From positions 191,061 through 255,060 of the forward strand of contig JBGSRW010000008.1 in assembly GCA_041737355.1 (NCBI GenBank): 64,000 nucleotides of DNA, written 5' to 3'. How positions within the stretch are numbered: the stretch's first letter is position 1; every line of letters begins with the position of its first letter. The stretch comes from Patescibacteria group bacterium. GTDB taxonomy: Bacteria; Patescibacteriota; Patescibacteriia; XYB2-FULL-38-15. A program made the translations under genes and the position numbers. The notes below the pieces were generated by a model that was not told the origin of the DNA, did not search any database, and saw only the letters and a list, made by a program, of their open reading frames with translations. Shown piece after piece: positions 4,606 to 57,627 of the stretch.

Positions 4606-5256
4606 TTATTTTTTTTCTTTTTTAAAAACCAGGTAGCTGTAAATTACTGTAATGGCGGCAGCCGATAAAACGCTTGATATTAAAACGATGAAACTTGCCA
4701 CTCCGCCAAAAAATGCGGCTAAAAAACTGATAACCCCGGCAACAGTAAAAATCTTTCCGCCGAAATAGTGCGTCTTTTTCCAATTTTCGTCGGAGACAAG
4801 CGTCCATGGGGTTCGGATACCGATGAAAAAATTCCTTTTAAGTTGCGGCAAAATCCAGCCGATAAAGCAAAAGAGCAAGGAAAGCGGGATGGCGAATACC
4901 AAATTTATTCCGGGCGGTGCGGATCGCATCGAGGCGTAAACCAAAAAGGCGTGAATGTAAATAAAGAAAAAAATCAAAAAAATCTTGAAATATCCGTACG
5001 GTTTGGCAAATGATTCATAGTTTTTCCGGAGAGGATCAACCGCCGGCAAAAAAGACATCAGAAGATAGAAGAATAAAGCTATGCCGGGCGTCAGGAATAA
5101 ATTGATATATTTCGAACCCCACCCGTCAACTTCCCCTTTAATATTCCAATGAGTGGGAACCTTGTCCGGCAAAGACGGGATAAGGACAAAACTGGAAACA
5201 AGAACGAGAAGGAGGAGGGCCAGTATCAGCCAGTCAATTTTTTTCCAAAATTTCAT
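4606..5256 (-). CDS. SdpI/YhfL-like (DUF1648) integral membrane protein
   Basis: 216 aa, 5-6 TM helices. N-terminal motif PSLPDKVPTHWNIKGEVDGWGSK is typical of the SdpI immunity-protein family. Confidence 0.55.
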   Translation of the reverse strand: MKFWKKIDWLILALLLLVLVSSFVLIPSLPDKVPTHWNIKGEVDGWGSKYINLFLTPGIALFFYLLMSFLPAVDPLRKNYESFAKPYGYFKIFLIFFFIYIHAFLVYASMRSAPPGINLVFAIPLSLLFCFIGWILPQLKRNFFIGIRTPWTLVSDENWKKTHYFGGKIFTVAGVISFLAAFFGGVASFIVLISSVLSAAAITVIYSYLVFKKEKK

Positions 5257-5312
5257 AGTTTTATAACTTAAAATTGATTAAACTATTCAGCTATTATATC
5301 ACCAAATACGCC

Positions 5313-5341
5313 TTGACAAAAACGGCTCCGGGGAATAAGTT
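5313..5341 (+). promoter_or_regulatory. Candidate sigma-70-like promoter (TTGACA-N17-TAAGTT) at left edge of GC-rich cassette A
   Basis: TTGACA at 5313-5318, 17-nt spacer, TAAGTT at 5336-5341. GGAGGAGAGG RBS and ATG follow at 5370. Confidence 0.35.
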
Positions 5342-5369
5342 TAATCTTGGAAAGATAAGGAGGAGAGGC

Positions 5370-5795
5370 ATGGAAGAGAACGGACATGAAGGCGAAGGCC
5401 TTTTCAATTTTGCCTTCGAACAGTTTGAGTACCACCGGAAAAACAACCCGGAAATTACCAAGGCTATCGACGAATTTTGCTGCGGCGCCGGACGAAACGA
5501 ATCGGCGCGGGTGATGTTCCCGGTCTTCTACGCCTTGAGGAGTATCGGTGAGGACGGCGCGTCTGTTCCCCGCGTCTCGGCTGATTCGGCCCAAAAGGCC
5601 AAGGACGAACTTCGCGGAGCCGGAGAAGACGTTCTCGAGCTTCCGATATTCGATGAATTCCGCGGATCAGTCCGCCACTTCACCTTTTTCCTTGATGTTT
5701 CGGTAAGGGAAGAAGAACCGAACCGGAAGGCGAAGCTGCTCTTCGCCACCATCCTACGCATGATCCAAACCGAAAAAATGAGACGATCCGGCTAG
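5370..5795 (+). CDS. Hypothetical protein (GC-rich cassette A, gene 1)
   Basis: ATG at 5370 with strong RBS aaggaggagagg. The ORF-track start at 5274 lies in AT-rich sequence upstream of the promoter, so 5370 is preferred. About 141 aa, GC-rich codon usage unlike neighbours. Confidence 0.5.
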   Translation: MEENGHEGEGLFNFAFEQFEYHRKNNPEITKAIDEFCCGAGRNESARVMFPVFYALRSIGEDGASVPRVSADSAQKAKDELRGAGEDVLELPIFDEFRGSVRHFTFFLDVSVREEEPNRKAKLLFATILRMIQTEKMRRSG

Positions 5796-5817
5796 AAAAA
5801 CGGGAGGACCGCCGCTA

Positions 5818-5851
5818 CGAGAGGCGCCCTTTGGGGAAGGCCTCTTTTTTA
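5818..5851 (+). terminator. Rho-independent terminator
   Basis: gaggc-gccctttggggaag-gcctc followed by TTTTTT. Confidence 0.45.
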
Positions 5852-5859
5852 TTTGCCTA

Positions 5860-5888
5860 TTGACAAAACAAACAAAATGTCCTAAGGT
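5860..5888 (+). promoter_or_regulatory. Candidate promoter TTGACA-N17-TAAGGT
   Basis: TTGACA 5860-5865, 17-nt spacer, TAAGGT 5883-5888. RBS gaaaggaggg and ATG at 5917. Confidence 0.35.
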
Positions 5889-5916
5889 TTAGTGTCCATT
5901 CCGAAAGGAGGGCGAA

Positions 5917-6384
5917 ATGGCAAGTCCAAGCGCCGAAAGGCGCGAACACTGGCTCATGAACAGGTTCTACGAGAAGGTGACTGTCCTAAGGGACACGAAG
6001 TCTTGCGCAGCCAACTGGCTTGATGACTTCAGGGACAGTTTCGCGAAAATCTTCGGGGCCGACCCGACCAAGCTTTGGGATATCATGGCTTTCGACGCGG
6101 GTATTTACCTCATGCTTGAAACGGTCGGTAAGATGGAGGCCGAACGCCTCCTCCCGATGATCAGCAAATATGCCTATGAACAGGCCAAGCGTGAATGGGA
6201 CGGATCCGACGCGCGCGTCATGGTTCAGCGCGAAATGACCTTCGCTATGAACACTTCGCTGTGCGGAATCCTCGAATTCTTCAGCGCAACCCTGGATGGG
6301 CTGCCGCTCGAGAACGAAGGCGGCCGCGCCCACTGCTACAACGAGCTGGCGAAACTTTTCAGGATGATCCGGCTCTCGCGCTAG
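5917..6384 (+). CDS. Hypothetical protein (GC-rich cassette A, gene 2)
   Basis: 155-aa ORF with strong RBS. Followed by hairpin gcatcccctcgcgaggatgc plus a T-run at about 6413-6445. Confidence 0.5.
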   Translation: MASPSAERREHWLMNRFYEKVTVLRDTKSCAANWLDDFRDSFAKIFGADPTKLWDIMAFDAGIYLMLETVGKMEAERLLPMISKYAYEQAKREWDGSDARVMVQREMTFAMNTSLCGILEFFSATLDGLPLENEGGRAHCYNELAKLFRMIRLSR

Positions 6385-6456
6385 AGCCGCTACTAAAAGG
6401 AGGCAAAACAAAAAAAGCATCCCCTCGCGAGGATGCTTTCTTTTATTTTCTAAAAT

Positions 6457-6915
6457 TTACGCCGCTCTTTTGCCGGTTATCCTTTCCAGTGTCGCTTTGT
6501 GAGCCGCTTCCCTGGCTTTCTCTTTTTCTGTTAGGCCTTCCCTTTTCTTCAACATTTTCATCGCCGACTTATAAACCCCCTCGTTGAATTCTTCGGGCGA
6601 TACCCCTATTTTTGGACCAATTTTACCACTCTTTTCCCACTTAATATATTCCTCCAGTTCATTAACCCAAAACTTTCTTATGCTGTCCGCAGCCTGTTCG
6701 GCTCTTGCCGGATCCCCGCCTTCGCGGGCCAAAACCGATTTTACAAACTGCTCAGGAGTTATGGACCCCGTCTGCAGACCGCCAACATCCAAATTTTTTT
6801 CTTCCTCTTTTGAGCCGACGACTTCTAATTTTAGCTCATTATCCATATTTTTAGTTTTCTCCATTTTGTTATATTCCGCCATGACCTCTGACGGAACTTC
6901 GTCTTCGAAACCCAT
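6457..6915 (-). CDS. Hypothetical charged protein
   Basis: 152-aa ORF rich in E/K. No recognisable domain. Confidence 0.4.
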   Translation of the reverse strand: MGFEDEVPSEVMAEYNKMEKTKNMDNELKLEVVGSKEEEKNLDVGGLQTGSITPEQFVKSVLAREGGDPARAEQAADSIRKFWVNELEEYIKWEKSGKIGPKIGVSPEEFNEGVYKSAMKMLKKREGLTEKEKAREAAHKATLERITGKRAA

Positions 6916-8464: not shown

Positions 8465-8824
8465 TCATTCTCTCGGCGGAAGACCGTTCTTAAGCATCTT
8501 CAATTTCATTCTGGCCCAACCGTGCCCTCCGCCCTGCTCGTCAATAAGCCAGAGATGGCAAAGTATCGGGACTCTTTCCCCTGAAGCCAAATCGCTTGCC
8601 AGCAAAAAAATAACAATTTTTCTCAAGAATTCCAGGTCTTGCTTGGCGGCAGCAAATTCAGCTACCGTTAACCTGACGCTCCTCTCGTGCCATTTCACAA
8701 TTTCGACATAGATGGATATGGCCGCGAGAAGAAGGTCGTCAGGAGCATCGTTGAACCTAGCCCGGATTTTTTGCCGAAGATCCGGGGTCTCTCCTTCTTT
8801 CATTTCCGTCCTCCTCTCGGTCAA
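8465..8824 (-). CDS. Hypothetical protein
   Basis: 119-aa ORF. Internal RBS gagaggagg before the second Met suggests the true start is at about 8803. Moderately GC-rich. Confidence 0.4.
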   Translation of the reverse strand: MTERRTEMKEGETPDLRQKIRARFNDAPDDLLLAAISIYVEIVKWHERSVRLTVAEFAAAKQDLEFLRKIVIFLLASDLASGERVPILCHLWLIDEQGGGHGWARMKLKMLKNGLPPRE

Positions 8825-8879
8825 ATTATTATAACAAAAAAGAGGTTGTCGTCAACCCCTTTTTCACTAAGTTAAAAAT

Positions 8880-9914
8880 TTATTGCAGGTATTTCACCTT
8901 ATTGGCCTTGTGTTCTTCAAAATTCCTGCTGTAAATTGTCTGGCCGTCCTTCGCATGCAAGAAATACCAATAATTATTTGCCTTGGGATAAATTGCCGCC
9001 TTAATCGCCAAAAGACCGGGATTACCAATCGGTCCCTCAGGCAAACCTCTGTATTTATAAGTATTGTATGGAGAATCTATTTTCAAATCGTCCAAACTGG
9101 GCTGAGTTTCGTATTTTCCCGTCGCATAATTTACCGTGGCATCAGATTGTAAGGCAATCCCCTCGTCTATTCTCCTCCAAAAAATATCCGAAACCATTGC
9201 CATGTCGTTACCTACGGCTTCTTTTTCCAAAATAGAAGCCATGGTAATTATTTCAAAAATTGTTTTTTTCTGTTTTATAATCTCTTCTTTCAATTCAGCC
9301 GATAATTTCTCACCAAAATTATTCAGCATTTTTTTTATTATGTGTTTAGCCAAATCATTTTCTTCACCAGCCTCGGACCGAAGCTCGGGCGGCAGTTTGG
9401 CATAAATTCTATAAGTATCCGGAAAAAGAAAACCTTCAAGCCCAGCCCCGCCCGGCCTATCTTTCAGAAAATCATAATCCGTCTCGCTCGCCTTAAAATT
9501 TTCTAATCCTTTAAGAAAAATTTCTTCACTTAAAATATTTTCCTTTTCCAGATATTTCCCTATCTCCCCGTTATTCCACCCTTCAAGTATTTTTATATCC
9601 CTCTCGTCGGGGCCGCTTGTTTTCGTCAAAACGTCCGCAATTTCCCAAAGGCGCATATTTTTGCGGAGATTATGCTCACCGGCCTGAAAATTGCTTTGAA
9701 TTTTTTTTAGCCAAACGTATGTTTCAAAAAATATTTTGTTCCTGACGAATCCTTCTTTTTCAAGATTTTGACTTATAGTATTAACTCCCTCGCCTTTTGC
9801 TATAACAAAAATTTTCTCGCCAGACTCCCCGCTCGGCGGAGTAAGTAAAAACCAAACGACGGCAGCGACGGCGACTATGATTGCTAAAGAAAAAATTTTT
9901 TTCATATTTATCAA
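8880..9914 (-). CDS. mltG: Endolytic murein transglycosylase MltG (YceG family)
   Basis: 344 aa. N-terminal TM, then the conserved block LQSDATVNYATGKYETQPSLDDLKIDSPYNTYKYRGLPEGPIGNPG. Hairpin terminator ggttgtcgtcaacc plus T-run downstream at about 8835-8865. Confidence 0.8.
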   Translation of the reverse strand: MINMKKIFSLAIIVAVAAVVWFLLTPPSGESGEKIFVIAKGEGVNTISQNLEKEGFVRNKIFFETYVWLKKIQSNFQAGEHNLRKNMRLWEIADVLTKTSGPDERDIKILEGWNNGEIGKYLEKENILSEEIFLKGLENFKASETDYDFLKDRPGGAGLEGFLFPDTYRIYAKLPPELRSEAGEENDLAKHIIKKMLNNFGEKLSAELKEEIIKQKKTIFEIITMASILEKEAVGNDMAMVSDIFWRRIDEGIALQSDATVNYATGKYETQPSLDDLKIDSPYNTYKYRGLPEGPIGNPGLLAIKAAIYPKANNYWYFLHAKDGQTIYSRNFEEHKANKVKYLQ

Positions 9915-24878: not shown

Positions 24879-25487
24879 CTACTTGTGGACGGCCAAGAAC
24901 CGGTAATGATCGCTCCATTCGATGCCGACCCAGAGTACGAAAAGGTGCCGCTCGTTGAGGCGCCAGTCGAGACAGGCGAAGAAGCGGCCGCCGTGCCGAT
25001 CCATGAAGTGCGAGCCGAGAGCCACGATCCCGAACTCCTTCTGGAGCTCGGGACGAGCGGCGCCGAGGGCCAAGAGCTCTTCGATCTTGGCCGGACGGAG
25101 GCCGCGACGGGCGAGTTCCGCGAGAATTTCGTCGGTCGAGGCCATCTTGTTCATGTGAACGAGGACGAGCTCGCGGAGGACCTTGCCCTCGCCCGAGATC
25201 GGGAAGAACCCGGGGGTGATGTCATCGTTCACGAAGTCGTAGCGGCCGGAGGCGATCATTGCCTCGAGGCTCTGACCATAGTCGACCTCGACCTTGAAGG
25301 TCGCGTCGGAAGGGAGGGCCGCCTTCACCATGGCGATTTCCGCCTGGCCCTTGACGAGAGGCAGCAACCGCGCGAGCAGGTCTCCTTCGGAGAGCCGCTT
25401 CACGTCGGCGTTGGTCCAGCCGTTCCGGCCGAAAGCCATTGCCAGCTCATGGGCCTGGCCAGTTGTCATCTTGAACTCGTCACTCAT
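24879..25487 (-). CDS. Hypothetical protein, paralog family member 1 (GC-rich cassette B)
   Basis: 202 aa. Shares the block GRYDFVNDDIT ... RGLRPAKIEELLALGA.RPE.QKEFGIVALGS ... RFLAV with the protein at 42762-43395. Confidence 0.5.
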   Translation of the reverse strand: MSDEFKMTTGQAHELAMAFGRNGWTNADVKRLSEGDLLARLLPLVKGQAEIAMVKAALPSDATFKVEVDYGQSLEAMIASGRYDFVNDDITPGFFPISGEGKVLRELVLVHMNKMASTDEILAELARRGLRPAKIEELLALGAARPELQKEFGIVALGSHFMDRHGGRFFACLDWRLNERHLFVLWVGIEWSDHYRFLAVHK

Positions 25488-25547
25488 GACTTGTTCTCTT
25501 TCTTTCTCGCAACCGATTCAATCCGAACCCCGTTGCTGTCTTTGGCC

Positions 25548-25564
25548 GAGAGAAATTCCCAGCC
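25548..25564 (-). promoter_or_regulatory. Conserved 17-nt leader motif (minus-strand GGCTGGGAATTTCTCTC), copy 1
   Basis: Identical 17-mer also present at 43522-43538, upstream of the paralogous gene. Lies in the 5' leader of 24879-25487. A candidate minus-strand TTGACA sits at 25597-25602. Confidence 0.4.
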
Positions 25565-25659
25565 AACGAATTATTAAATCATTCTTTGGATATTTTGTCA
25601 ACACCTTTTTAAATAAAAAAGAGCTAGCTTCAAAAGCCAGCTCAAGGAAAAGAAAAGAA

Positions 25660-26418
25660 TCAGTTGCGCTTGCCGTTCTCGGCTATCTTCCGGCAGGCGG
25701 TGAGAGTCGCTTCGGTCCAGTGTTCAAGCCGGCGCGCTTCATTGAGCGTGATGACTTCGACTACCCTGCCCCAGTGAAAAGCAACCAAGTCGCCAGCTCT
25801 GATACGCGGAATAATCTGCGGATCGCGCCGGACAAGACGCTTTTTTTCTTTTTCTTCCAGCTCTGCCAGGAATCTGTTACCCTCGTGCTTCAGAGATCTT
25901 GCCGAAACGGTAAGCTCCGGCCCCTTGCCAACCGAGACGACTTTTCCCCAGCCGATGCGACAAAGCTCCCAGCCGACCGATTCGCGATCCACCTGACCAG
26001 AAATTCCGCCGATTGCGAGAACATGAAAACTGTGGTGCGGCCGGTGCTGATAGTGGACGTGGTCCGTGGTTTCTTTCGCTGCCGCCTCGGTCATCCGGCC
26101 CTCGCCGACAAAACCGAATATCAGCTCCCTCAGATCTTCCGGCCGGACACGGCCGAGGAGTTCGTTGCCAATCCAGTAGGCGTCAACCACGCGGTCGTCA
26201 AGCCAGTCTTCGATTCCGTTTGCCGCGGCAATGAGCTTCAGGTAGGCCGTGGCCGCGGTAAACTGCCCCAAGAGCCGCCTTGCATGATTGTCGTCGACCT
26301 TGCTCTTGGTCGTGAGATACTGGTATAGCTTGCCCTTCTCACTGCCCCGCGGCCCGCAAAGGCCGAGTTCGTTCGGGTAAAGCGCGTAACGCGCCGCCCG
26401 CTCGTATTTCTTTCCCAT
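25660..26418 (-). CDS. Hypothetical His-rich protein translationally coupled to hypC (GC-rich)
   Basis: 252 aa. ATG is 1 nt after the hypC stop, and the hypC 3' end (gggggagaggaggaaaaaa) provides its RBS. Contains a His cluster HVHYQHRPHHSFH. GC-rich, unlike hypC. Confidence 0.5.
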   Translation of the reverse strand: MGKKYERAARYALYPNELGLCGPRGSEKGKLYQYLTTKSKVDDNHARRLLGQFTAATAYLKLIAAANGIEDWLDDRVVDAYWIGNELLGRVRPEDLRELIFGFVGEGRMTEAAAKETTDHVHYQHRPHHSFHVLAIGGISGQVDRESVGWELCRIGWGKVVSVGKGPELTVSARSLKHEGNRFLAELEEKEKKRLVRRDPQIIPRIRAGDLVAFHWGRVVEVITLNEARRLEHWTEATLTACRKIAENGKRN

Positions 26419-26652
26419 CTATTTTTTCCTCCTCTCCCCCTGATTTTGGAATTCGTCCAGGACGGCAAGGCAATTTTTCGCCTCCTCTTCGGAAATTTTT
26501 TTCATTCCAATGCTGCCTTGCACCAATATCCAATCACCTTTTGCCGCTTCCGGCAAGAGTGAAGTGTCAATATCAAAAACTTTGCCGCCATTTTTAACGG
26601 CGGCTTTATTTTTCTTGATTTTTTCAATTTTACAAGGAATACCGAAGCACAT
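26419..26652 (-). CDS. hypC: Hydrogenase maturation chaperone HypC/HupF
   Basis: 77 aa starting MCFGIPCKIEKI (the essential N-terminal Cys2 motif MC[LF][GA]IP). Confidence 0.8.
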   Translation of the reverse strand: MCFGIPCKIEKIKKNKAAVKNGGKVFDIDTSLLPEAAKGDWILVQGSIGMKKISEEEAKNCLAVLDEFQNQGERRKK

Positions 26653-27606: not shown

Positions 27607-28425
27607 TTAAATCGCTCCGCGGATATCTTTTATTTGGTCCCAGGAAAAAACCGGACCGTCCTGGCAGACAAAGAAACTTCCGACCGCGCAATGGTTGCAA
27701 ACCCCGACCCCGCAGTGCATCCGCCGTTCGAGTGACATAAAAATATCTTCGTCTTTGAACCCTGCTTTATTTAATTTTTCCAGAACAAATTTATACATAA
27801 CCGGCGGGCCGCAGAGAAACGCGACTGGGTTTTCGGCAAGCGGCGCCTTGTCAAATAAAACCGTAACCAAACCCTGAATTATTGGACAAGATAATTTAAA
27901 TTTATCCGTCGGCTTATCAAGACACAAATGAAAATCAACATCATTTTTCATCCATGAATCGTATTCTTTCCGGAAAAGCAGGTCGTCTTCGGTTTTTGCC
28001 CCGTAAAAAATCTGGACTTTTTTATATTGTTTCCTGTTTTTTACGATTTCAAAAATCGCCGTCCGGACCGTTTCAAGGCCAAGTCCGCCAACAACGATTA
28101 AGAGATTCCTCTTCTTCGCCAGTTCCGCGGGAAACGGCCGGCCGTACGGCCCGCGGACGCCGACTCTGTCCCCCGCCTTGAGGGAATGCATTGCCGCGGT
28201 TACCGTTCCGACATTTCTCGCGCAAACCTGAAATTTATTTTTTTCTGACGCGTCGGAGCAAAGGCAAAAGGGCGCCTCGCCAAATCCCGGCAAAGATATT
28301 TCCACGAACTGACCCGACTGGTATTTGAAATTTTTTGGCGCTTCAAGGGTAAACAATTTTGAATTTGAACCCTCGTCCTCGATTTTCAAAATCCTTACCG
28401 TTTGCGGCGCGTATTGATTTTTCAT
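27607..28425 (-). CDS. hydG: Hydrogenase gamma subunit (FAD/NAD(P)H-binding, [2Fe-2S]; PyrK-like)
   Basis: 272 aa. Ferredoxin-reductase-like FAD/NAD domains. C-terminal CGVGVCNHCAVG [2Fe-2S] motif. Confidence 0.8.
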   Translation of the reverse strand: MKNQYAPQTVRILKIEDEGSNSKLFTLEAPKNFKYQSGQFVEISLPGFGEAPFCLCSDASEKNKFQVCARNVGTVTAAMHSLKAGDRVGVRGPYGRPFPAELAKKRNLLIVVGGLGLETVRTAIFEIVKNRKQYKKVQIFYGAKTEDDLLFRKEYDSWMKNDVDFHLCLDKPTDKFKLSCPIIQGLVTVLFDKAPLAENPVAFLCGPPVMYKFVLEKLNKAGFKDEDIFMSLERRMHCGVGVCNHCAVGSFFVCQDGPVFSWDQIKDIRGAI

Positions 28426-29387
28426 AATTTTGCCAGAACTTTAAAAATATTTATTCCCACCGGACAAACCTTGGCGCAGCGGCCGCAGCCGACGCAGCCC
28501 ATAATTTGCAATTGGTCGGGAATTCGGACGAATTTATGGTAATACCAGAAATGGATCCGGTCGGCGGTAGTTTTTAAAAACTTTTGCCCGCCCCCCACTT
28601 CGGAAAAATCATTGTAAAAACAGGCTCCCCAGCTCCGCTTTCTGACTCCGCCATCGTCTGTCAGATTTGGCTGATCTTTAACATCAAAACAAAAACAGGT
28701 CGGACAAACCATGGTACATTTTCCGCACTCAATACAACGCGCCCCGAGATCGTCTTCCCAAATTTCTTTTTTATAAATCTTTTTCAGGGCGTCGCGGTAT
28801 TTTATCATTTGCGGATCCTTTCCTTCTTCTCTTATCGGCCCGGAAAATTGGATATGCTCGTAATCCTTGTAACCGAATTCATCAAGAATCTTTTGCCCAT
28901 CCTCCGAACCGGTATAAACAAAATAATTTTTCCCTTGGACTTCAAGGAAAATATCAAACTGCAGATGTTCTAAAATATCTTCCTCGTATTTAATATGAAA
29001 AAGATTATGCTCGGCCTCGGCAGGAATCAAACTCTGCCCGACAATCAAAGTATTTTTCATCCGCTCCTGATACCAGAGATCTTTTTCGAAAATATGGTTG
29101 AACAAAACTATTGCTTTGAGATCAATCGGATTTATCCCAAAAATTACCTGCTTCCTCGCTTTCTTCACTTCGATCATCCTGTCTTTTTTGTATTCAAAAA
29201 TAACTTCTTCCGGCGGCAGCAAAAACCGTTTGAAAGAATGAAGCGGCGGTTCTTTAACGAGCTTCACTTTTGAGGCGTCTTCAACTTTGGCGTAAGCCAC
29301 TTCGTCTTTTTGTTTTTCCGGTGCGAAAACATCATATCTCCGCTTCATCAAAAAACTAATAAATTTTTGCAGTTGTCCGTGGGTCAT
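28422..29387 (-). CDS. hydB: Hydrogenase beta subunit (4Fe-4S ferredoxin-type)
   Basis: 321 aa. CIECGKCTMVCPTCFCFD and CVGCGRCAKVCPVG iron-sulfur motifs. Overlaps hydG by 4 nt. Confidence 0.8.
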   Translation of the reverse strand: MTHGQLQKFISFLMKRRYDVFAPEKQKDEVAYAKVEDASKVKLVKEPPLHSFKRFLLPPEEVIFEYKKDRMIEVKKARKQVIFGINPIDLKAIVLFNHIFEKDLWYQERMKNTLIVGQSLIPAEAEHNLFHIKYEEDILEHLQFDIFLEVQGKNYFVYTGSEDGQKILDEFGYKDYEHIQFSGPIREEGKDPQMIKYRDALKKIYKKEIWEDDLGARCIECGKCTMVCPTCFCFDVKDQPNLTDDGGVRKRSWGACFYNDFSEVGGGQKFLKTTADRIHFWYYHKFVRIPDQLQIMGCVGCGRCAKVCPVGINIFKVLAKL

Positions 29388-34302: not shown

Positions 34303-34395
34303 CAAATAAAATTAAAAAAGATTCTGTTTGACAGGGTCTTTTTTATTTTATACCCTAATGTGATGCCCAAAAGGGAGGAAAAAGGAGGAGGGTGA

Positions 34396-35364
34396 ATGGA
34401 ACAGGTTATCATATCGGGAAACGCCAACCGGCTACTGGCCGAAAAAGTGTGCGGAATTCTACACGCCAAGCTCGGCGAAGCCTGGGCAGGACGCTTTGCC
34501 GACGGAGAAGTTGATGTCGGCGTGCCCAACGTCCGCGGCAAGCATGTGGTCATCCTACAGCCGACTCCCCCGCCGGCGGAAAACTGGTTCGAAATATTCT
34601 TTATGGCCGACGCGGCCATCAGCGGTTCGGCTGAAGAAGTCACGGTCTTCATGCCCTATATGGGCTACGCCCGGCAGGATCGCAAGGACAAGCCGCACCG
34701 CCCGATTTCCGCCAGAGCCATGATTAGAATGCTTGCGGCAATGGGAGTCGACAGATTGATGACCATGGATCTCCACGCCGCCCAGATCCAGGGCTTCACT
34801 CTGCTTCCCTTTGATAATCTCTATCTCTCCTCCACTCTGCTCGAATTCCATCGGGATCTCCCCTGGAAAACCGGCGCGGTGATTGTCTCGCCCGATGCCG
34901 GCGGCGTCGGGCGGGTTAGGGCAATTGCCAAGATTCTTGGCTGCGAGATTGCCTTCATCGACAAACGCCGCGACGGACCGAACCAGTCCGAAGTGATGCA
35001 TGTCGTCGGCGAAGTCAAAGGCAAGATCGCCGTGATGTTGGACGACATGATCGACACAGCCGGCTCTCTCGTCAAGGGCGCCGAAGCGGTCATGGCCGAA
35101 GGCGCGACCGAGGTCCATGCCGTCGGTTCGCACGGCGTCCTCTCCCGGAACCAGAACCCCGAGAAGGATTCGATTGAACGGCTGAAGAAGTCGCCGCTCA
35201 AAACCCTCGTCATTTCCGATTCGCTTCTGATCCCGGAGGAAAAGCGATTCGACCGCATGCACATCGTTTCTTGCGCACCGCTCGCCGCCGAAATGATCCG
35301 GCGCGTTCACAACCGAGAACCGGTTAGCCCGCTCTTTGAGGAGGCCTTTCGCTGGGTAAAATAA
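34396..35364 (+). CDS. prs: Ribose-phosphate pyrophosphokinase (PRPP synthetase), GC-rich
   Basis: YARQDRK, DLHAAQIQGF, VSPDAGGVGRVRA, DDMIDTAGS motifs. Strong RBS aaaggaggagggtga. About 60% GC versus about 42% in adjacent prfA. Confidence 0.85.
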   Translation: MEQVIISGNANRLLAEKVCGILHAKLGEAWAGRFADGEVDVGVPNVRGKHVVILQPTPPPAENWFEIFFMADAAISGSAEEVTVFMPYMGYARQDRKDKPHRPISARAMIRMLAAMGVDRLMTMDLHAAQIQGFTLLPFDNLYLSSTLLEFHRDLPWKTGAVIVSPDAGGVGRVRAIAKILGCEIAFIDKRRDGPNQSEVMHVVGEVKGKIAVMLDDMIDTAGSLVKGAEAVMAEGATEVHAVGSHGVLSRNQNPEKDSIERLKKSPLKTLVISDSLLIPEEKRFDRMHIVSCAPLAAEMIRRVHNREPVSPLFEEAFRWVK

Positions 35365-35570
35365 CCCGGCAAAAATCAAATAGTCCGCCCGAATTTCCCC
35401 TAAAATTCGGGCTTTATTTATTATTAAGACTTGACAAACCCGCTTTTCTGTAATACCCTGAAAATATCATAAATGGTGGCCATCCCGCCAAAGAGGCGGG
35501 AAGGAAGGTGGCCCTAGACATCTGCCGATAGACGGCGGATTAAAAATAGGGAAGGTTGGAGGAGAGAGAA

Positions 35571-35831
35571 ATGTTTTTGGAGAGCCTCGGCATGGATCCG
35601 GAAACCGGTACGATCGGCGCTTCTTCGCTCGGTGCGATCCACGTCAAGAACCGGATTGACCCGGAAAAACCGCTCCGTCGCTGCCAGGAACCCGGTTGCG
35701 GTACGATTCTCCGCAGCGGCAACCCGGACAACTACTGCTCGCTGCACACCTGCTCCGAAAGGCGCGGCAAGAAGTACACCGACTCCGTCGCCCTCCGGCG
35801 CCGGAAGCGGATGCATCTCGTCCGCGTCTGA
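35571..35831 (+). CDS. Small Cys-containing (zinc-ribbon-like) hypothetical protein
   Basis: ATG at 35571 with RBS ggaggagagagaa. CQEPGCGTILRSGNPDNYCSLHTC Cys pattern. Basic C-terminus. Confidence 0.4.
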   Translation: MFLESLGMDPETGTIGASSLGAIHVKNRIDPEKPLRRCQEPGCGTILRSGNPDNYCSLHTCSERRGKKYTDSVALRRRKRMHLVRV

Positions 35832-35988: not shown

Positions 35989-36017
35989 TTGACAAATTAA
36001 ATTTTTTAAATTAAGGT
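35989..36017 (+). promoter_or_regulatory. Candidate promoter TTGACA-N17-TAAGGT
   Basis: TTGACA 35989-35994, 17-nt spacer, TAAGGT 36012-36017. Same architecture as 5860-5888. Confidence 0.35.
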
Positions 36018-36083
36018 GCGGATAGAAAGGACTTGCCAAAACAACCCCGCGAATCGCGGGCAAAAGGCAAGCGGGAGGAAGAC

Positions 36084-36584
36084 ATGGCAGACGACAAGAG
36101 GGAGAAGGCAAAGGTACTTCTGGCGGACCGCCTGCGAACCCTGCAGGCCGCCGAATTTCTGGACTTCGAGGACATCGTGCGCCACCTGCAAGGTGGCGAC
36201 AGCCTCGCCCGCACCATCGTGAATCTCGCCAAGGTTGTCGGCTTCGACAGCGTCTACGGCGATCTCTACGCCAGGGCGGTCTTCAAGGACAACGGGAAAG
36301 GAATCGTCCAGACCTGGAAGAAGGCTCTCCTGAACGAGGTCTCTCTGGTCGAGGAGCTGCTTCGCAACATCCCCAACGACGAAATCCCCCTCCTCTTCAA
36401 GTTCTGGCTCACGGAGACGCGTGAACGCGCCACCTGGGAACAGCTCGTCAACGCCACCCCTTACGCCATCCTCCGGGCCTGCGCCTCCGAGGGCGACAAG
36501 CGTGCCGACGAAGCTGCCGCTGATGCGGAAGTCGTCGACGAGGAGGTCATGGAGATCGGAGAACCCTCCGACGACGGGAAGTGA
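36084..36584 (+). CDS. Hypothetical acidic protein (GC-rich cassette C)
   Basis: ATG at 36084 with RBS gcgggaggaag. The track ORF begins at a TTG at 36033. About 166 aa, acidic C-terminal tail. Hairpin plus T-run follows at about 36606-36650. Confidence 0.45.
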   Translation: MADDKREKAKVLLADRLRTLQAAEFLDFEDIVRHLQGGDSLARTIVNLAKVVGFDSVYGDLYARAVFKDNGKGIVQTWKKALLNEVSLVEELLRNIPNDEIPLLFKFWLTETRERATWEQLVNATPYAILRACASEGDKRADEAAADAEVVDEEVMEIGEPSDDGK

Positions 36585-41472: not shown

Positions 41473-41540
41473 AAAATTTTATAAAATTATTTTTAAACCG
41501 ACGTCTTGACAAAAAAGTTTATTTGTATTAACTTAGCCTG

Positions 41541-41738
41541 TTGGAGGTGAAAATCATGGCGCATGAAGAAAAGCCCGAGACGGGCAAAGTAGTCGTAATT
41601 CCGACGATTCCCCTGCTGCCTTCCGGCGTCTACGATATGGGAACAATCACCCGCCTTATTTCCGAAGCCGAACTCGCCAACAATCCGCCCGCGTCCGAGG
41701 AATCCAGCTCCGCCGTGCCGAAGCCAGAGGAGGACTAA
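41541..41738 (+). CDS. Small hypothetical protein
   Basis: 65-aa ORF with ggaggtgaaaatc RBS. Followed by hairpin acccgc...gcgggt plus T-run. Confidence 0.3.
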   Translation: MEVKIMAHEEKPETGKVVVIPTIPLLPSGVYDMGTITRLISEAELANNPPASEESSSAVPKPEED

Positions 41739-42761: not shown

Positions 42762-43395
42762 TTAGTCAGAGGGCCAAACTTCGCAGAGCCTAAGGGTCTT
42801 TTTGGGAACAGCCAGAAATCGCTCTTCCTGATCCCATCCCCCGAAGCCCGAGTGCAGGACCAAAAACCGCTTTCCCTCACCGTTCCCGCAGAGGCCCGCG
42901 AATTTGCTGCTAATGTCCGGTTTTCCTCGGCACGAACCGAGGGCCACGATCGGAAACTTCTTCTGCTCCTCCGGGAACCTCGCCCCGAGAGCAAGAAGCT
43001 CCTCAATCCTGGCGGGCCGAAGACCGCGATGCTCCATCTCCGCGAGAACCTCGTCGGTTCTCACCATCTTATCCGGCCCCGGGTAGACAAGGATGAGCTT
43101 GCGCTCGGCCTTGCCCTCGCCTGTGATGTCAAATTGGGAGAAGAGGTCTTCGCACGTGGGCTTCTCCTCGTTACAAACTGGACAGATTTCGTCGGTGATC
43201 TCCTTGTCCACCAAGTCGTAGTGGCCAGCGGCGATCATCTCAGGAAGATCGATGAAGTAATTCACTACCACCTTGAAGCTCCGGTCGGCGAACTGACCCG
43301 GATTCCGCAAGAAGACCTGAAAGGCCTCACGCGTCACCCGGCCGGACTCGATCTGGTGGTGGAGTTCGGAAATCTGCTCGATCGTCGGCTTTGCC
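42762..43395 (-). CDS. Hypothetical protein, paralog family member 2 (GC-rich cassette D)
   Basis: Start taken at MAKPTIEQ with RBS gcaaggagaaaagaaa. GHYDLVDKEIT ... RGLRPARIEELLALGARFPEEQKKFPIVALGS ... RFLAV, paralogous to 24879-25487. Confidence 0.5.
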
Positions 43396-43521
43396 ATTTT
43401 CTTTTCTCCTTGCATCTTTCGGTATTCGCCAGGGCATCCCCACATTATTGTTGGGACAGCCTTTTGATAAACCGACGAGACGCTTGCTCCGCACTCCTGG
43501 CAAAGAGTGAAGAACCTAGCT

Positions 43522-43538
43522 GAGAGAAATTCCCAGCC
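43522..43538 (-). promoter_or_regulatory. Conserved 17-nt leader motif (minus-strand GGCTGGGAATTTCTCTC), copy 2
   Basis: Identical to 25548-25564. A candidate minus-strand promoter TTGACA (43637-43642) -N17- TATTAT (43614-43619) lies upstream. Confidence 0.4.
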
Positions 43539-43658
43539 TTGTTTTGAAGGTCATAAAACCGTCAAAATAAGGCTAGAAATTCAACTTTAAAAGAACCATT
43601 TTACTAACGTTTTATAATAACAAATTTTCAATGTTTTGTCAATAGTAATTCTCGATAA

Positions 43659-46176: not shown

Positions 46177-46722
46177 ATGCCTAAACAAATAGCCCAAAGA
46201 GGAAGACTCTGGTACGCGATCCATACCTATTCCGGCTACGAGGAAAACGTCGCCCACAATTTGAAACAGAGAATCGAATCAATGGGCATGCAGGACAAAA
46301 TTTTCAGCGTCTTAATCCCGACTGAAAAGAAAATAAAAATTAAAAACGGAAAACGCCGGACGGTAATCGAGAAAATCTTCCCCGGCTATGTTCTCGTGGA
46401 AATGTTTGTCACCGACGATTCATGGTATGTCGTGCGGAACACTCCGAACGTTACCGGCTTCATCGGCACGGGAACGATTCCCACTCCCCTTTCCGAGGGA
46501 GAAATAAAACAGCTCCAGAAAAGAATGGGAGAAGAAGAACCCCAATATAAAATTGACGTCACGGTCGGCGCGCCGGTCAAAATCAACGACGGACCGTTCA
46601 AGGGTTTCGAAGGAAAAATTTCGGCTATTGATGAGGCCCGCGGCAAGGTTAAAGTACTGGTAAGCATGTTCGGCCGGGAAACCCCGGTAGAATTGGACTT
46701 TTTGCAAGTTAAAAAAATATAA
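46177..46722 (+). CDS. nusG: Transcription termination/antitermination factor NusG
   Basis: WYAIHTYSGYEENV NGN domain, C-terminal KOW (GAPVKINDGPFKGFEGKI). Confidence 0.85.
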   Translation: MPKQIAQRGRLWYAIHTYSGYEENVAHNLKQRIESMGMQDKIFSVLIPTEKKIKIKNGKRRTVIEKIFPGYVLVEMFVTDDSWYVVRNTPNVTGFIGTGTIPTPLSEGEIKQLQKRMGEEEPQYKIDVTVGAPVKINDGPFKGFEGKISAIDEARGKVKVLVSMFGRETPVELDFLQVKKI

Positions 46723-46788
46723 AATAAAATTACATTGTTATATTGCTAAATGCTTCTAGTTTAGCTCTTAACCATGTAGCGTAAAAGT

Positions 46789-47217
46789 ATGGCAAAAAAA
46801 ATTAAGACAGTAATAAAATTACAAATTCCGGCCGGTAAGGCCAACCCGGCGCCGCCGATCGGTCCGGCGCTCGGCCAGCACGGTTTGAATATCGCCGAAT
46901 TCTGTTCCAAGTTCAACGCGGCCACTTCGAAAATGGCCGGCGACATTATCCCGGCGGAAATCACCGTTTACGAAGACCGCACCTACACCTTTGTTTTAAA
47001 AACCCCTCCGGCGGCCGAACTTTTAAAAAAAGCCGCGGGGATTGAAAAAGGTTCAGGAAAACCCTTGCAGGAAAAAGTTGGCAAAGTCACCCGGGCGCAA
47101 ATCCGGGAAATTGCCGAGAAAAAAATGCCGGACCTGAACGCGAACGATATTGAAGCGGCTATGAGGATTATCGAAGGCACAGCGCGGCAAATGGGTGTGG
47201 AGGTAGTTGAAAAATAA
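46789..47217 (+). CDS. rplK: 50S ribosomal protein L11
   Basis: [26 protein letters not shown] signature. Confidence 0.9.
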
Positions 47218-47229
47218 TTTTATATTCAC

Positions 47230-47670
47230 ATGGCATTCAAACTAAATTCGGTCCGGACAGTTTATTTCTACCTGATCGCCCTGATTGCCCTTATGATGAT
47301 TGTCTGGGGAACCGTTGATCTTGCGAACCTCGGCCTTACAACCTGGGTTTTTAAAAAAGCCGATAAAGCCGACGATTGGGCTCCGCCGGTTCCTTACATG
47401 GTAACCGAAGTAAAGCTTGGGGAAACTGCCGCCCGCTGCGCGGAAAAGTGCGATTTAACTGCCGACGAAAAGCTGCAGATTCAAAATTGGCTAGTTGACT
47501 ACAAAAACTGGCAGGATCAGCAAGGAGTTTTGAAGGTCGCGAGAAAACAAAAAAACGCCGTCCGGGATATTTCCATGCTCGTTGTCGCCATTCCCCTGTT
47601 CTTGTGGCATTGGAAAATGATCAGCAAGGAAATAAAAGAAGCGAAGGAAAATACTAATAAAGAAGTTTAA
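47230..47670 (+). CDS. Hypothetical small membrane protein inserted between rplK and rplA
   Basis: 146 aa. N-terminal TM (VYFYLIALIALMMIVWG) and C-terminal TM (MLVVAIPLFLW). Starts 13 nt after rplK. Confidence 0.45.
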   Translation: MAFKLNSVRTVYFYLIALIALMMIVWGTVDLANLGLTTWVFKKADKADDWAPPVPYMVTEVKLGETAARCAEKCDLTADEKLQIQNWLVDYKNWQDQQGVLKVARKQKNAVRDISMLVVAIPLFLWHWKMISKEIKEAKENTNKEV

Positions 47671-47725
47671 ATTTTAATTTCGTGGGAGACCAAATTAAAT
47701 AAGGTCGTCATTACCACAAAAACTT

Positions 47726-48403
47726 ATGCGCGGAAAACGCTATCAGGAGGCGAAAAAATCCATCGACCCTAAAAAGAGTTACTCTCTCGACGAGGCTTTG
47801 GACATGATTAAAAACGGACCTAAAGAAAAATTCGATGCCGGAGTTGAAATCCATATCAAGCTCGGCATTGATCCTAAAAAGGGCGATCAATTGGTGCGCG
47901 GCATGCTCGTTTTGCCCCATGGCATCGGCAAGACGAAAAAAATTGCCGCTTTTGTCGAACCGGCTCTGGAAAAAGAGGCAAAAGAGGCCGGCGCGGAAAT
48001 CGTCGGCGGAGAAGAATTGATTAAGGAAATCAAATCCTCGGAAAAGGCCAATTTTGAAATTGCAGTGGCAACTCCGACCATGATGCCTAAACTCGCCCAG
48101 ATCGCGAAAATCCTAGGTCCCAAAGGCTTGATGCCGAACCCGAAAACCGAAACGGTCAACCCGAATATCAAAAAAATTATCGGGGAATTAAAGAAAGGAA
48201 AAATCAACTTCAAAAACGACGACGGCGGAAACATCCATCAATTGCTTGGAAAAGTTTCCTACGATAAGGAAAAACTTCTGGCGAACCTGACCGCTTTCAT
48301 CGAAGCCGTCCGCAAGGCCAAACCGGCCGCGGCCAAGGGCGTTTACATCCAAACCGCCGTTATCTGCTCGACCATGGGTCCGGCGATTAAAATAAACTTC
48401 TAA
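47726..48403 (+). CDS. rplA: 50S ribosomal protein L1
   Basis: KRYQEAKKSIDPKKSYSLDEAL ... GPKGLMPNPKTETV signature. Confidence 0.85.
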   Translation: MRGKRYQEAKKSIDPKKSYSLDEALDMIKNGPKEKFDAGVEIHIKLGIDPKKGDQLVRGMLVLPHGIGKTKKIAAFVEPALEKEAKEAGAEIVGGEELIKEIKSSEKANFEIAVATPTMMPKLAQIAKILGPKGLMPNPKTETVNPNIKKIIGELKKGKINFKNDDGGNIHQLLGKVSYDKEKLLANLTAFIEAVRKAKPAAAKGVYIQTAVICSTMGPAIKINF

Positions 48404-48416
48404 TCTCAAAATAAAT

Positions 48417-48950
48417 ATGGAAGAAAAATGTTATCGTCCGAATTGGGACGATTACTTTATGGCGATTACCAGAATTGTCGCTACCCGCGGCACTTGCGAC
48501 AGATTGCGGGCCGGCGCGGTTCTTGTAAAGAAGAATCGGATAATCTCCACGGGCTACAACGGTTCGCCTCCGGGGCTTCCTCACTGCGATGACGTTGGTC
48601 ATTTGATGGAAGAAGGGCATTGCATCAGAACAATCCACGCGGAACATAATGTTATTTTGCAGGCGGCTGTTATCAGCGGAGCAAACACAGAAGGCTCAAC
48701 CATGTATACGAAATTCAACCCCTGTATGCATTGCGCGAAATATGTCGTGGCTGCCGGAATAAAAAGAGTTGTTATCGGCAAACTATATCGTGGAGAAAAA
48801 GCCGTGGAATATTTGAAAGAGGCCGGAGTGCAAGTTGACATTTACCAGGAAAATCCCGAGTGGAATAAATCCGTCCGGGAACTTTTTAACCAGGAAATTG
48901 AACAAACATTAGCTAAAGAAGGCGATGTTCAATTGCAGGTCGCAAAATAA
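48417..48950 (+). CDS. dCMP deaminase (ComEB/cytidine-deoxycytidylate deaminase family)
   Basis: HAEHNVI zinc-binding motif and PCMHCAKYVVAAG (PCxxC). Confidence 0.8.
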   Translation: MEEKCYRPNWDDYFMAITRIVATRGTCDRLRAGAVLVKKNRIISTGYNGSPPGLPHCDDVGHLMEEGHCIRTIHAEHNVILQAAVISGANTEGSTMYTKFNPCMHCAKYVVAAGIKRVVIGKLYRGEKAVEYLKEAGVQVDIYQENPEWNKSVRELFNQEIEQTLAKEGDVQLQVAK

Positions 48951-48955
48951 ATACT

Positions 48956-49531
48956 ATGGCCGATCCGCAAAATAAAATAATCGTCGGTCTTGCCGGGAAA
49001 ATTGCCTCTGGGAAAGAAACTGTCGGAAAATATTTGGTGGAGAAAATGGACGGAAAAAAAATAAAATTTTCCGATCCCCTGCGCCAGATCCTTGATATCC
49101 TCGACCTTCCCGACAGCCGACAAAACATGCAGACGCTTTCCACCGTTGTCAGACAAAATTTCGGGGGAAACGTTCTGGCTCAGGCGATGATGAAATTGGT
49201 TGCACGCTTGGAAAATAAACTTGTAGTAATCGACGGCGTCCGGCGCGTAACCGACATTGAAAACTTCCGGCAATTAAAAAACTTTTTTCTTGTCTATATT
49301 GACGCCTCCTCAAAAAAAAGATTTGAAAGGTGCGTGCAGAGAAAGGAAAACCCCGGAGACGGCGAGATGACCCGCGGAGAATTCGACCGGAAAGACAATG
49401 CCGAAGCCGAAGAGCAGATTGAATCGTTAAAAAAAGAAGCGGATTTTGTGGTGAAAAACGACGGGACCATGGAAGAGCTATACCTGGAGATAGAAAATCT
49501 TTTGGAAAAAATCCATGCAACTCAAAATTAA
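48956..49531 (+). CDS. P-loop nucleotide/nucleoside kinase-like protein
   Basis: 191 aa. Walker A GLAGKIASGKET near the N-terminus. Embedded in the thymidylate gene cluster. Confidence 0.5.
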   Translation: MADPQNKIIVGLAGKIASGKETVGKYLVEKMDGKKIKFSDPLRQILDILDLPDSRQNMQTLSTVVRQNFGGNVLAQAMMKLVARLENKLVVIDGVRRVTDIENFRQLKNFFLVYIDASSKKRFERCVQRKENPGDGEMTRGEFDRKDNAEAEEQIESLKKEADFVVKNDGTMEELYLEIENLLEKIHATQN

Positions 49532-49949
49532 ACGCATTGATAAATCATTGCCACTGCCCGAATACAAAACCAACGGGGCGGTGGCTTTTGATTTAACGGC
49601 GAGAATCGATATTGAAATAGAACCGCACGCCATTGCCCTTATTCCATTGAACGTCATTATTGAAATTCCAAAAGGCTATACAATAATTCTGGCGCCGCGG
49701 AGCAGCTTGCCTATTAAAAAGGGCCTGCTTATTCCGAACGGCCTGGGAATTTTTGACCAGGATTATTGCGGACCGGAAGACGAATGGCGCCTCGAAGTTT
49801 TGAACTTTACCGATAAAAAAGTTAAAATTGAAAAAGGAGAAAGGATCGGTCAGGGTTTGATTTTACCGATAGAAAAAGCCGAATGGCTTGAAGTGGAAAA
49901 AATTGATAAGCCGAACCGCGGCGGCTTTGGCAGCACGGGTCAGAAATAA
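49515..49949 (+). CDS. dut: dUTP diphosphatase (dCTP deaminase/dUTPase superfamily)
   Basis: 144 aa. Jelly-roll dUTPase motifs (GAVAFDL, RSSL, GLGIFDQDY, GERIGQG). Confidence 0.8.
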   Translation: MQLKIKRIDKSLPLPEYKTNGAVAFDLTARIDIEIEPHAIALIPLNVIIEIPKGYTIILAPRSSLPIKKGLLIPNGLGIFDQDYCGPEDEWRLEVLNFTDKKVKIEKGERIGQGLILPIEKAEWLEVEKIDKPNRGGFGSTGQK

Positions 49950-57192: not shown

Positions 57193-57220
57193 TTGACAAA
57201 TTAGCATTATCATGTAAAAT
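57193..57220 (+). promoter_or_regulatory. Candidate promoter TTGACA-N16-TAAAAT
   Basis: TTGACA 57193-57198, TAAAAT 57215-57220. RBS gaaaggagtg and ATG at 57247. Confidence 0.4.
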
Positions 57221-57246
57221 AGAGAGTTCCCGAAAGGAGTGTTCCG

Positions 57247-57627
57247 ATGGGCGAAGTTCACGGGCTCTTCCAGGACGCCCGTTACAACCGGGCGATGTTC
57301 GAGAGAATCGCTGCCGTGAGCCTTACCGAAATCAACGGCAGAATGGCTCTGCGGCTCGACCTTTCAACTGGCGATCTGCATCTTGACTGGCTGAACAGCG
57401 TACCAACTTACCGCTTCGTCATTGACAATGGCGCGCGGATTCTCGAAGGAAAGCACTGGCATATCTTCCGGCACGAACCGGAACCGCCTTACTTCGTTGA
57501 AGTTAGACTGCAAAATCTCTCTACGAGGGCCAAGGAGGAAACCCTCGGAGACTGGACCACGCTGCAAGTCGTGATCCAAGCTGATGGAAACGTCGAAAAG
57601 CATTTCGAGGTCAAGAAGGCCTCGTAG
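57247..57627 (+). CDS. Hypothetical protein (GC-rich cassette F)
   Basis: 126-aa ORF. GC-rich. No recognisable motif. Confidence 0.45.
   Translation: MGEVHGLFQDARYNRAMFERIAAVSLTEINGRMALRLDLSTGDLHLDWLNSVPTYRFVIDNGARILEGKHWHIFRHEPEPPYFVEVRLQNLSTRAKEETLGDWTTLQVVIQADGNVEKHFEVKKAS

Follow-up and report, generated by a model that had tools for sequence, protein, structure and literature searches.

We analysed a window of 64,000 nucleotides (nt) from a Patescibacteria group bacterium (assembly GCA_041737355.1, contig JBGSRW010000008.1, positions 191,061 to 255,060 of the forward strand) and focused on two adjacent genes, here called A1 and A2, that encode proteins without known family. The two genes probably constitute self-sufficient single-gene units, each with a sigma-70-type promoter, translation initiation that depends on a Shine-Dalgarno (SD) sequence, and an intrinsic terminator as boundary. 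They would belong to an accessory gene class, reminiscent of phage morons, in a genome of the candidate phyla radiation (CPR) that otherwise does without SD sequences. Five kinds of observation carry this reading: the motifs themselves, their conservation, their association with one class of genes, the presence or absence of the units as modules in relatives, and the high G+C content at third codon positions (GC3) that the units retain. "The window" below always refers to the whole 64,000-nt stretch, and all coordinates are window coordinates unless a relative is named.

Organization of the A1 and A2 units

The features of the two units are the following; promoters and terminators are predictions.

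5313-5341, plus strand: predicted A1 promoter, TTGACA(AAA) with the -35 box at 5313-5318, 17-nt spacer, -10 box TAAGTT at 5336-5341
5357-5363, plus strand: A1 SD sequence AAGGAGG, 6 nt from the ATG, anti-SD duplex -10.8 kcal/mol
5370-5795, plus strand: A1 open reading frame (ORF), 141 amino acids (aa), GC3 0.63, all-alpha, without known family
5819-5853, plus strand: predicted A1 intrinsic terminator, GAGAGGC...GCCTC followed by a T-run, centroid structure
5860-5888, plus strand: predicted A2 promoter, TTGACA(AAA) with the -35 box at 5860-5865, 17-nt spacer, -10 box TAAGGT at 5883-5888
5905-5911, plus strand: A2 SD sequence AAGGAGG, 5 nt from the ATG, anti-SD duplex -11.4 kcal/mol
5917-6384, plus strand: A2 ORF, 155 aa, GC3 0.74, eight-helix bundle, without known family
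6410-6446, both strands: bidirectional intrinsic terminator, A-run before and T-run after the hairpin, z = -2.1

The distance from the end of the -10 box to the ATG is 28 nt in both units, and the A2 -35 box begins 7 nt past the end of the A1 terminator. Both terminators, at 5819-5853 and 6410-6446, consist of a G+C-rich hairpin and a U-run located after the stop codon. The hairpin at 6410-6446 is common to A2 and to a convergent gene on the minus strand (6457-6915) that encodes a 152-aa protein, and it is conserved in the related locus L008. The stability of the A1 terminator does not exceed that of shuffled sequence (z = -0.06), yet the relatives L002, L008, L009 and L010 all keep its stem and T-run. 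The initial annotation had described the two ORFs as separate mini transcription units of the same architecture, each with a strong ribosome-binding site and a hairpin terminator of its own. This description holds with all its coordinates, and the AAGGAGG sequences and the hairpins are also retained in relatives.

On the other side of A1 lies a divergent SdpI-like gene (4606-5256, minus strand). Its extended -10 element, TGaTATAAT at 5293-5301 on the minus strand, is located 11 nt upstream of the A1 -35 box, and its ATTATATCAC is nearly invariant across six orthologous loci.

Association of the promoter with GC3-rich genes

The strict form of the motif, TTGACA-N16-18-TAAGKT, has three matches on the two strands of the 64 kb against 0.01 expected, and none of 100 shuffled sequences reaches three. 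The sites are 5313-5341 (TAAGTT), 5860-5888 and 35989-36017 (both TAAGGT), with no others. The last of these belongs to cassette C (C3 in the list further below) and, as had been proposed before, repeats the architecture with TAAGGT at 17-nt spacing. The relaxed form, TTGACA-N16-18-TAnnnT, matches eight times against 0.89 expected in the window. All eight sites are intergenic, although non-coding sequence makes up only 7% of the window and coding sequence 93%, and each points at a GC3-rich ORF. Upstream intergenic sequence of 45 nt or more is available for 37 gene starts, and among these the relaxed motif precedes 8 of 9 GC3-rich ORFs and 0 of 28 others (Fisher p = 2e-7); the ninth GC3-rich start, that of B2, has TTGACAAA-N17-TTTAAT in place of the TAnnnT form. 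The 8-mer TTGACAAA is specific to the GC3-rich cassette class, and most GC3-rich genes of the window combine TTGACAAA-N17-TAnnnT with a strong SD sequence and a terminator of their own. The suspected tie between the motif and GC-rich genes is borne out, as the motif never occurs in coding sequence or before ordinary genes. In 61 loci from other phyla or other Patescibacteria (L011-L071), TTGACA promoters followed by SD sequences have no link to raised GC3.

Could two AT-rich intergenic regions simply resemble a loose pattern by chance? In favour of this, the pattern was drawn up with the sequence already in view, and a generic promoter scanner listed neither the A1 nor the A2 promoter, as their -10 boxes match TATAAT at only 3 of 6 positions and its cut-off is 4 per hexamer. 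Such a coincidence is nevertheless so improbable as to be negligible: it is refuted by the three matches against 0.01 expected, by the association with GC3 and by hexamers that are invariant in 6-7 diverged loci.

Conservation among relatives

A search of 5.8 billion proteins yields no more than 5-6 homologues for A1 and A2, and an A2 profile retrieves 6 clusters among 1.84 billion representatives. Every homologue with context occupies one and the same slot, in the order SdpI-like gene, A1, A2, 152-aa gene. The orthologous contigs come from independent Logan, ENA, JGI and GenBank assemblies, so the units are not assembly chimeras. Two of the relatives carry surprising labels. An 88%-identical A2 homologue, P0002 (RPI70296.1), on a 1.5-kb contig is assigned to Desulfobacteraceae, and L010 (OZ246416.1, a complete 886-kb chromosome) to "uncultured Gammaproteobacteria". 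The likely reason is that Patescibacteria sequences were mis-binned or mislabelled in both cases.

Across the 6-7 orthologous loci, the invariant elements upstream of A1 and A2 are TTGACAAAA, positions T1, A2 and T6 of the -10 box, GGAGG and the ATG. The spacer is exactly 17 nt long in every orthologue while its sequence diverges. For A1, TTGACAAAA and TAA..T are invariant in 6 loci and GGAGG is found in all orthologues; for A2, the hexamers are invariant in 7 loci and the SD sequence is kept. Over the same loci the identity of the A1 and A2 proteins falls to 32-37%. Compared with L008, A1 is 32% and A2 37% identical, against 69% for the SdpI-like protein and 55% for the 152-aa protein, which implies that the cassette proteins evolve faster than their neighbours. 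The C3 promoter is likewise conserved in three further genomes, with TAAGGT in L074 and L076 and TAAAGT in L075. As phylogenetic footprints, these patterns show selection on the hexamers of the units, on their 17-nt spacing and on their SD sequences.

Modular presence and absence

The units come and go between colinear relatives. L006 has no A1: an A2-type promoter follows immediately on its SdpI promoter region, which places the difference between the two TTGACAAAA boxes. In L009, L010 and L073, A1 is kept, and an unrelated GC-rich ORF of 120 aa with a different terminator stands behind an A2-type promoter that is nearly identical to the A2 promoter of the window (TTGACAAAATAAACAAAATnnTCTAAGGTTTAgTGTCC). 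The slot between prfA and prmC varies in a similar manner: it holds prs, C2 and C3 in the window, prs, the C2 leader and C3 in L074, and C2 and C3 in L075. In L076 it contains C2 and C3, and its upstream part lies beyond the end of the contig. The absence of prs, the gene for ribose-phosphate pyrophosphokinase, from the slot of L075 means that a gene of central metabolism behaves as an accessory module.

The alternative 120-aa ORF has a TTG start (L009 4967-5405, L010 4913-5355 and L073 1673-2111, all on the minus strand) and is preceded by a longer leader with a TGTCC...GGACA hairpin and a second SD sequence.

Two further ideas were tried and rejected. A widely dispersed, portable A2 promoter was sought with a 32-nt pattern in a metagenome scan, which returned two contigs, both from the same clade. 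As to a phage or plasmid origin, no matches were found in IMG/VR (family patterns), GenBank phages or PLSDB plasmids.

Two classes of genes in one genome

About 10 of the 70 genes in the window have a GC3 of 0.63-0.84 against a background of ~0.47. The set comprises A1, A2, B1 (DUF6390), B2, prs, C2, C3, a 60-aa ORF at 41556, D (42762-43397) and F (57247-57627). For A1 and A2, with 0.63 and 0.74, the contrast with the flanking genes (0.48-0.49) is immediate. The same genes differ from the rest in translation initiation. Predicted anti-SD duplexes have a median energy of -10.6 kcal/mol in the 10 GC3-rich genes and +0.3 kcal/mol in the 60 others, ribosomal protein genes included (p = 2e-5). Since start-codon choices in the window could hide SD sequences, the comparison was replicated in six related loci with gene calls from public pipelines, giving -11.25 kcal/mol (14 genes) versus +0.3 kcal/mol (54 genes; p = 2e-8). 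The presence of SD sequences in cassette genes and their absence from core genes is a stronger signal than the promoter motif, and one that the initial annotation missed.

The core genes have essentially no SD sequence. Their upstream regions are A/T-rich, their -10 boxes consist of A and T only and are often TG-extended, and their -35 boxes are imperfect or absent; the ribosomal protein genes at 46177-49949 are among these SD-less genes. In many core genes TGnTATAAT or TAAAAT lies so near the ATG that the mRNA must be leaderless, for example at prfA (33262), prmC (36675), 28422-29387 (minus strand) and 55877-57154 (minus strand). The classes also differ in codon and amino-acid usage:

C fraction at NNY codons: cassettes 0.75, core genes 0.40, ribosomal protein genes 0.51
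G fraction at NNR codons: cassettes 0.60, core genes 0.28, ribosomal protein genes 0.32
Arg/(Arg+Lys): cassettes 0.58, core genes 0.32, ribosomal protein genes 0.18

The codon shift of the cassettes partly follows that of highly expressed genes but exceeds it by far, and the amino-acid content is shifted too. All A1 and A2 orthologues have a GC3 of 0.64-0.75, compared to 0.40-0.55 in their neighbours. This includes orthologues with a protein identity of just 32-37%, a divergence at which synonymous sites must have reached saturation. The high GC3 might be retained through selection on codons, through repeated re-import or through biased gene conversion at slots prone to recombination.

The deviating composition (GC, GC3 and the Arg/(Arg+Lys) ratio) and the modular presence of the units might instead mark foreign DNA. 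The cassettes would then be recent, un-ameliorated transfers from a GC-richer donor that uses SD sequences, and their signals donor relics without a special role. The promoters themselves would suit such a donor, since TTGACA-N17-TAnnnT with G or C in the -10 box resembles the housekeeping promoters of high-GC bacteria. Recent transfer is still very unlikely, as the same slot is occupied in genomes whose cassette proteins are 32-59% identical, with a GC3 of 0.64-0.75 in every lineage. The promoter and SD signals are under purifying selection, which argues against relics, and no homologue was found outside the clade among the 5.8 billion proteins, nor in the phage and plasmid collections.

Proteins encoded by the units

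AlphaFold 2 (AF2) models both proteins as soluble all-alpha bundles, with a predicted local distance difference test score (pLDDT) of 86 for A1 and 90 for A2 and predicted template modelling scores (pTM) of 0.83 and 0.85, respectively. Conserved sequences together with these confident models indicate that A1 and A2 are real proteins. Searches of Pfam, NCBIfam, PHROGs, PADLOC, PDB and BFVD gave no informative match to either protein, in sequence or in fold. Our best guess is that they are soluble helical-bundle accessory proteins with a binding or regulatory role.

Proposed mode of expression and choice of sigma factor

In the following account, which sigma factor acts, where transcription starts and how strongly the units are expressed is inferred, as is the function of the proteins given above. 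A housekeeping holoenzyme of the group 1 sigma-70/SigA type would read each unit from a -35-dependent promoter, in which a perfect TTGACA(AAA) and an optimal 17-bp spacer are combined with a -10 box that keeps only the essential T1, A2 and T6. Transcription would start ~7 nt past the -10 box, near 5348 in A1 and 5895 in A2, and the resulting leader of ~22 nt would bring the AAGGAGG sequence 5-6 nt ahead of the AUG. Each transcript would end at its own intrinsic terminator, the A1 terminator insulating A2 and the A2 terminator serving both directions. The likeness of the A1 and A2 promoters would stem from a genome-wide class of self-sufficient, GC3-rich, fast-evolving and lineage-restricted accessory genes, of which the window holds at least 9-10. 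Such units would be gained, lost or swapped as modules between relatives, in the manner of morons, between core chromosomal genes.

The promoter sequences are consistent with a general sigma factor. A1 and A2 have the perfect TTGACA, the 17-bp spacer and the T1, A2 and T6 of TATAAT that characterize sigma-70 group 1 promoters; the cassette promoters have neither the AAC-type -35 nor the CGT-type -10 of the extracytoplasmic function (ECF, group 4) sigma factors. The A1 -10 box is TAAGTT in the window and L007, TAAAGT in L008, L009 and L010, and TAAAAT in L002. That of A2 is TAAGGT or TAAGAT, and that of C3 TAAGGT or TAAAGT. Other cassettes of the window have TACCCT (twice), TAACTT, TATTAT, TAAAAT and TTTAAT. 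The only -10 positions that are fixed are T1, A2 and T6, the sigma-70 core TAnnnT, and drift of this kind fits the general sigma-70 form, for which a dedicated sigma factor is not needed. Core-gene promoters in the window consist of TTGACT, TTGCCA or TTGACG with TATAAT or TAAAAT, usually TG-extended. Their TTGAC-type -35 boxes suggest that the same type of sigma factor reads both gene classes, and one primary sigma factor reading two styles of promoter would be the economical reading.

The only sigma factor gene seen in the window is of the ECF type (68-640). Its own conserved ECF-type promoter, TGTAAT-N16-CGTTAT at 13-45, precedes both this gene and a gene for a FecR-like anti-sigma factor (645-2510). 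In L001, L002 and L006 a further promoter, TTGACT-N17-TAAKTA, is located upstream of the ECF-type promoter.

Several observations weigh against our overall account. The ribosomal protein genes shift only slightly towards the codon usage of the cassettes. The units lie outside phages and have no phage or plasmid relative that we could find, which makes "moron" an analogy and not a membership. The two units probably arose by an old tandem duplication of one unit, but this is weakly supported, as A1 and A2 are not significantly similar in BLASTP and their profile comparison is only suggestive (hhalign probability 6%). Finally, there are three features of the -10 region: 6 of 9 cassette promoters have G or C among positions 3-5, compared to ~1 of 17 core promoters (p = 0.002), the TG extension is present in one of the 9 cassette promoters (D), and TAAGGT is both recurrent and conserved. 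Judged on 64 kb, these features make a second sigma factor of the sigma-70 family conceivable.

These last features are also the ones that speak for a non-housekeeping sigma factor with a dedicated regulon, which would recognise TTGACAAA-N17-TAAGGT-like promoters and co-regulate the GC-rich cassettes. As a class the cassette -10 boxes differ from those of core genes, TAAGGT is kept at A2 in 6 of 7 loci and at C3 in 3 of 4 and recurs before a further cassette of L002, the 8-mer TTGACAAA is confined to the class, and the ECF sigma/anti-sigma pair is syntenic, 4.7 kb away. We regard a dedicated sigma factor as unlikely all the same. A single promoter, that of A1, drifts from TAAGTT through TAAAGT to the canonical-like TAAAAT, the remaining cassettes use TACCCT, TAACTT, TATTAT or TAAAAT, the TTGAC box and 17-nt spacing are found at core promoters too, and the ECF sigma gene, without any other sigma gene beside it in the window, has a different promoter. 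The initial annotation had offered a common regulatory origin or a dedicated sigma factor as the explanation for the cassettes, with TAAGGT as a special shared element. What stands of this is the shared architecture; the dedicated sigma factor is not supported, and neither is a special role for TAAGGT, since the -10 boxes vary among both orthologues and cassettes.

Other cassettes and their leaders

The remaining cassettes of the window are listed here.

34328-35364, plus strand: cassette C1, TTGACA-N17-TACCCT, strong SD sequence, prs at 34396-35364, GC3 0.71
35431-35831, plus strand: cassette C2, TTGACAAA-N17-TACCCT, conserved structured leader of ~110 nt, 86-aa Cys-rich ORF at 35571-35831, GC3 0.79
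35989-36584, plus strand: cassette C3, TTGACAAA-N17-TAAGGT at 35989-36017, 66-nt leader, SD sequence GGGAGGAAG
36084-36584, plus strand: C3 ORF, a 166-aa orphan, GC3 0.81
24879-25601, minus strand: cassette B2, TTGACAAA-N17-TTTAAT at 25601-25573, leader with GGCTGGGAATTTCTCTC, 202-aa ORF at 24879-25487, GC3 0.84
42762-43642, minus strand: cassette D, TTGACAAA-N17-TATTAT at 43642-43614, 211-aa B2 paralogue at 42762-43397, GC3 ~0.72
41506-41738, plus strand: cassette E, TTGACAAA-N17-TAACTT, SD sequence GGAGGTGA, 60-aa ORF at 41556-41738, GC3 0.67
57193-57627, plus strand: cassette F, TTGACAAA-N16-TAAAAT, SD sequence AAAGGAG, 126-aa ORF at 57247-57627, GC3 0.66

B2 and D are dispersed paralogues without known family (45% identity, E = 3e-33) and the sole paralogous pair that BLASTP finds among the cassette proteins. 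An identical 17-mer, GGCTGGGAATTTCTCTC, is located in their 5' leaders at 25548-25564 and 43522-43538, both on the minus strand.

The C2 leader (window 35460-35570; L074 4325-4460; L075 4239-4365; L076 503-640) is conserved as GGGUGGCC, a variable hairpin, GGAAGGUGGCCCU and a second hairpin, with a few compensatory changes. It has no match in Rfam, and Rfam and tRNA scans of the window as a whole came back empty. The leader may be an unknown cis-regulatory RNA ahead of the 86-aa Cys-rich ORF, whose product has a weak HNH-like match.

On the minus strand, an AT-typical hypC (26419-26652, GC3 0.46) is directly followed by the GC-rich DUF6390 gene B1 (25660-26418, GC3 0.68). The strong SD sequence of B1 sits within the 3' end of hypC, and the composition jumps inside one apparent operon.

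A third orphan family (112-121 aa) has the same unit design and a strong SD sequence. Its members, all on the minus strand, are located at 8465-8880 in the window (TTGACG-N16-TATAAT), 10502-10907 in L002 (TTGACA-N17-TAAGGT) and 3955-4367 in L007 (TTGACA-N17-TAAGAT). Their GC3 is 0.53 in the window and 0.64-0.67 in the relatives.

Implications

In this one genome, the composition of a gene, the type of its promoter, its use of an SD sequence and its mobility vary cleanly together. To our knowledge, almost nothing has been established experimentally about promoters and translation initiation in Patescibacteria. The promoter, SD and terminator elements backed by phylogenetic footprinting are potential building blocks for CPR genetics, an emerging field. 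If the two-class organization extends genome-wide, it would provide a simple sequence rule to pick out the fast-evolving accessory genes of these episymbionts, which are candidates for roles in host interaction or conflict. The persistence of high GC3 in syntenic orthologues at 32-37% protein identity offers a natural test case in which selection or biased gene conversion can be set against amelioration.

The organization also raises the question of whether SD-led mRNAs are translated differently from those of the SD-less core. A more far-reaching and rather doubtful extension would be that two parallel expression codes coexist in one small genome: an SD-less, often leaderless core with AT-only and often TG-extended -10 boxes, and an accessory set marked by a perfect -35 box, strong SD pairing and codons ending in C or G. 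By analogy with Flavobacterium ribosomes lacking bS21, selective expression of the accessory set might depend on the state of the transcription and translation machinery, as when a subpopulation of ribosomes exposes its anti-SD sequence, and the high GC3 of the set might be actively maintained by selection or biased gene conversion and not be a relic of transfer.

Comparison with known systems

We found no description of such an organization in CPR bacteria in the literature. The units also differ from integron cassettes: they carry their own promoters and there is no integrase among their neighbours, although attC sites were not specifically searched for.

At the level of transcription, the cassettes share TTGACA, the 17-bp spacer and T1, A2 and T6 with canonical sigma-70/SigA promoters. 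They deviate from these in having G- and C-rich positions 3-5 in the -10 box (TAAGGT, TACCCT) and hardly ever a TG extension. This sets them apart from the resident core promoters, which belong to the extended -10 type TGnTATAAT.

At the level of translation, the closest parallel is found in Bacteroidia, whose ribosomes ignore SD sequences unless they lack bS21, and in which rpsU is translated by ribosomes lacking bS21 (PMC7797042, PMC9976891). The Patescibacteria genome resembles them in having SD-less core genes with A-rich upstream regions and a small minority of genes with very strong SD sequences. Here, however, the SD-led minority amounts to ~15% of the genes, and it consists of GC3-rich, promoter-distinct, orphan accessory genes and not of rpsU.

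A compositionally distinct minority is also familiar from gene prediction. GeneMarkS-2 uses an "atypical" class of genes, regarded as horizontally acquired (PMC6028130), and the cassettes are similar to this class in that their codon composition is distinct from that of native genes. In contrast to the atypical class, their composition co-varies with promoter, SD sequence and terminators and is retained among orthologues.

The best overall comparison is with the phage moron, a concept from HK97 and HK022 that denotes a lone gene of deviant GC content, equipped with a promoter and a terminator of its own and inserted between conserved neighbours (PMC3594210). Like morons, A1 and A2 each enclose one gene between a predicted sigma-70-type promoter and a predicted intrinsic terminator, differ in GC from their neighbours, and are present, absent or swapped in colinear relatives. 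Unlike morons, the units reside in core chromosomal neighbourhoods (for example at the SdpI-like gene, prfA/prmC and gyrB) and not in a prophage, have no viral homologues in the collections searched, keep their composition over deep divergence, and differ from the resident genes in translation initiation. Every feature of a moron except residence in a phage is found in these units, and we therefore use the term as an analogy for a chromosomal class of self-sufficient accessory genes.

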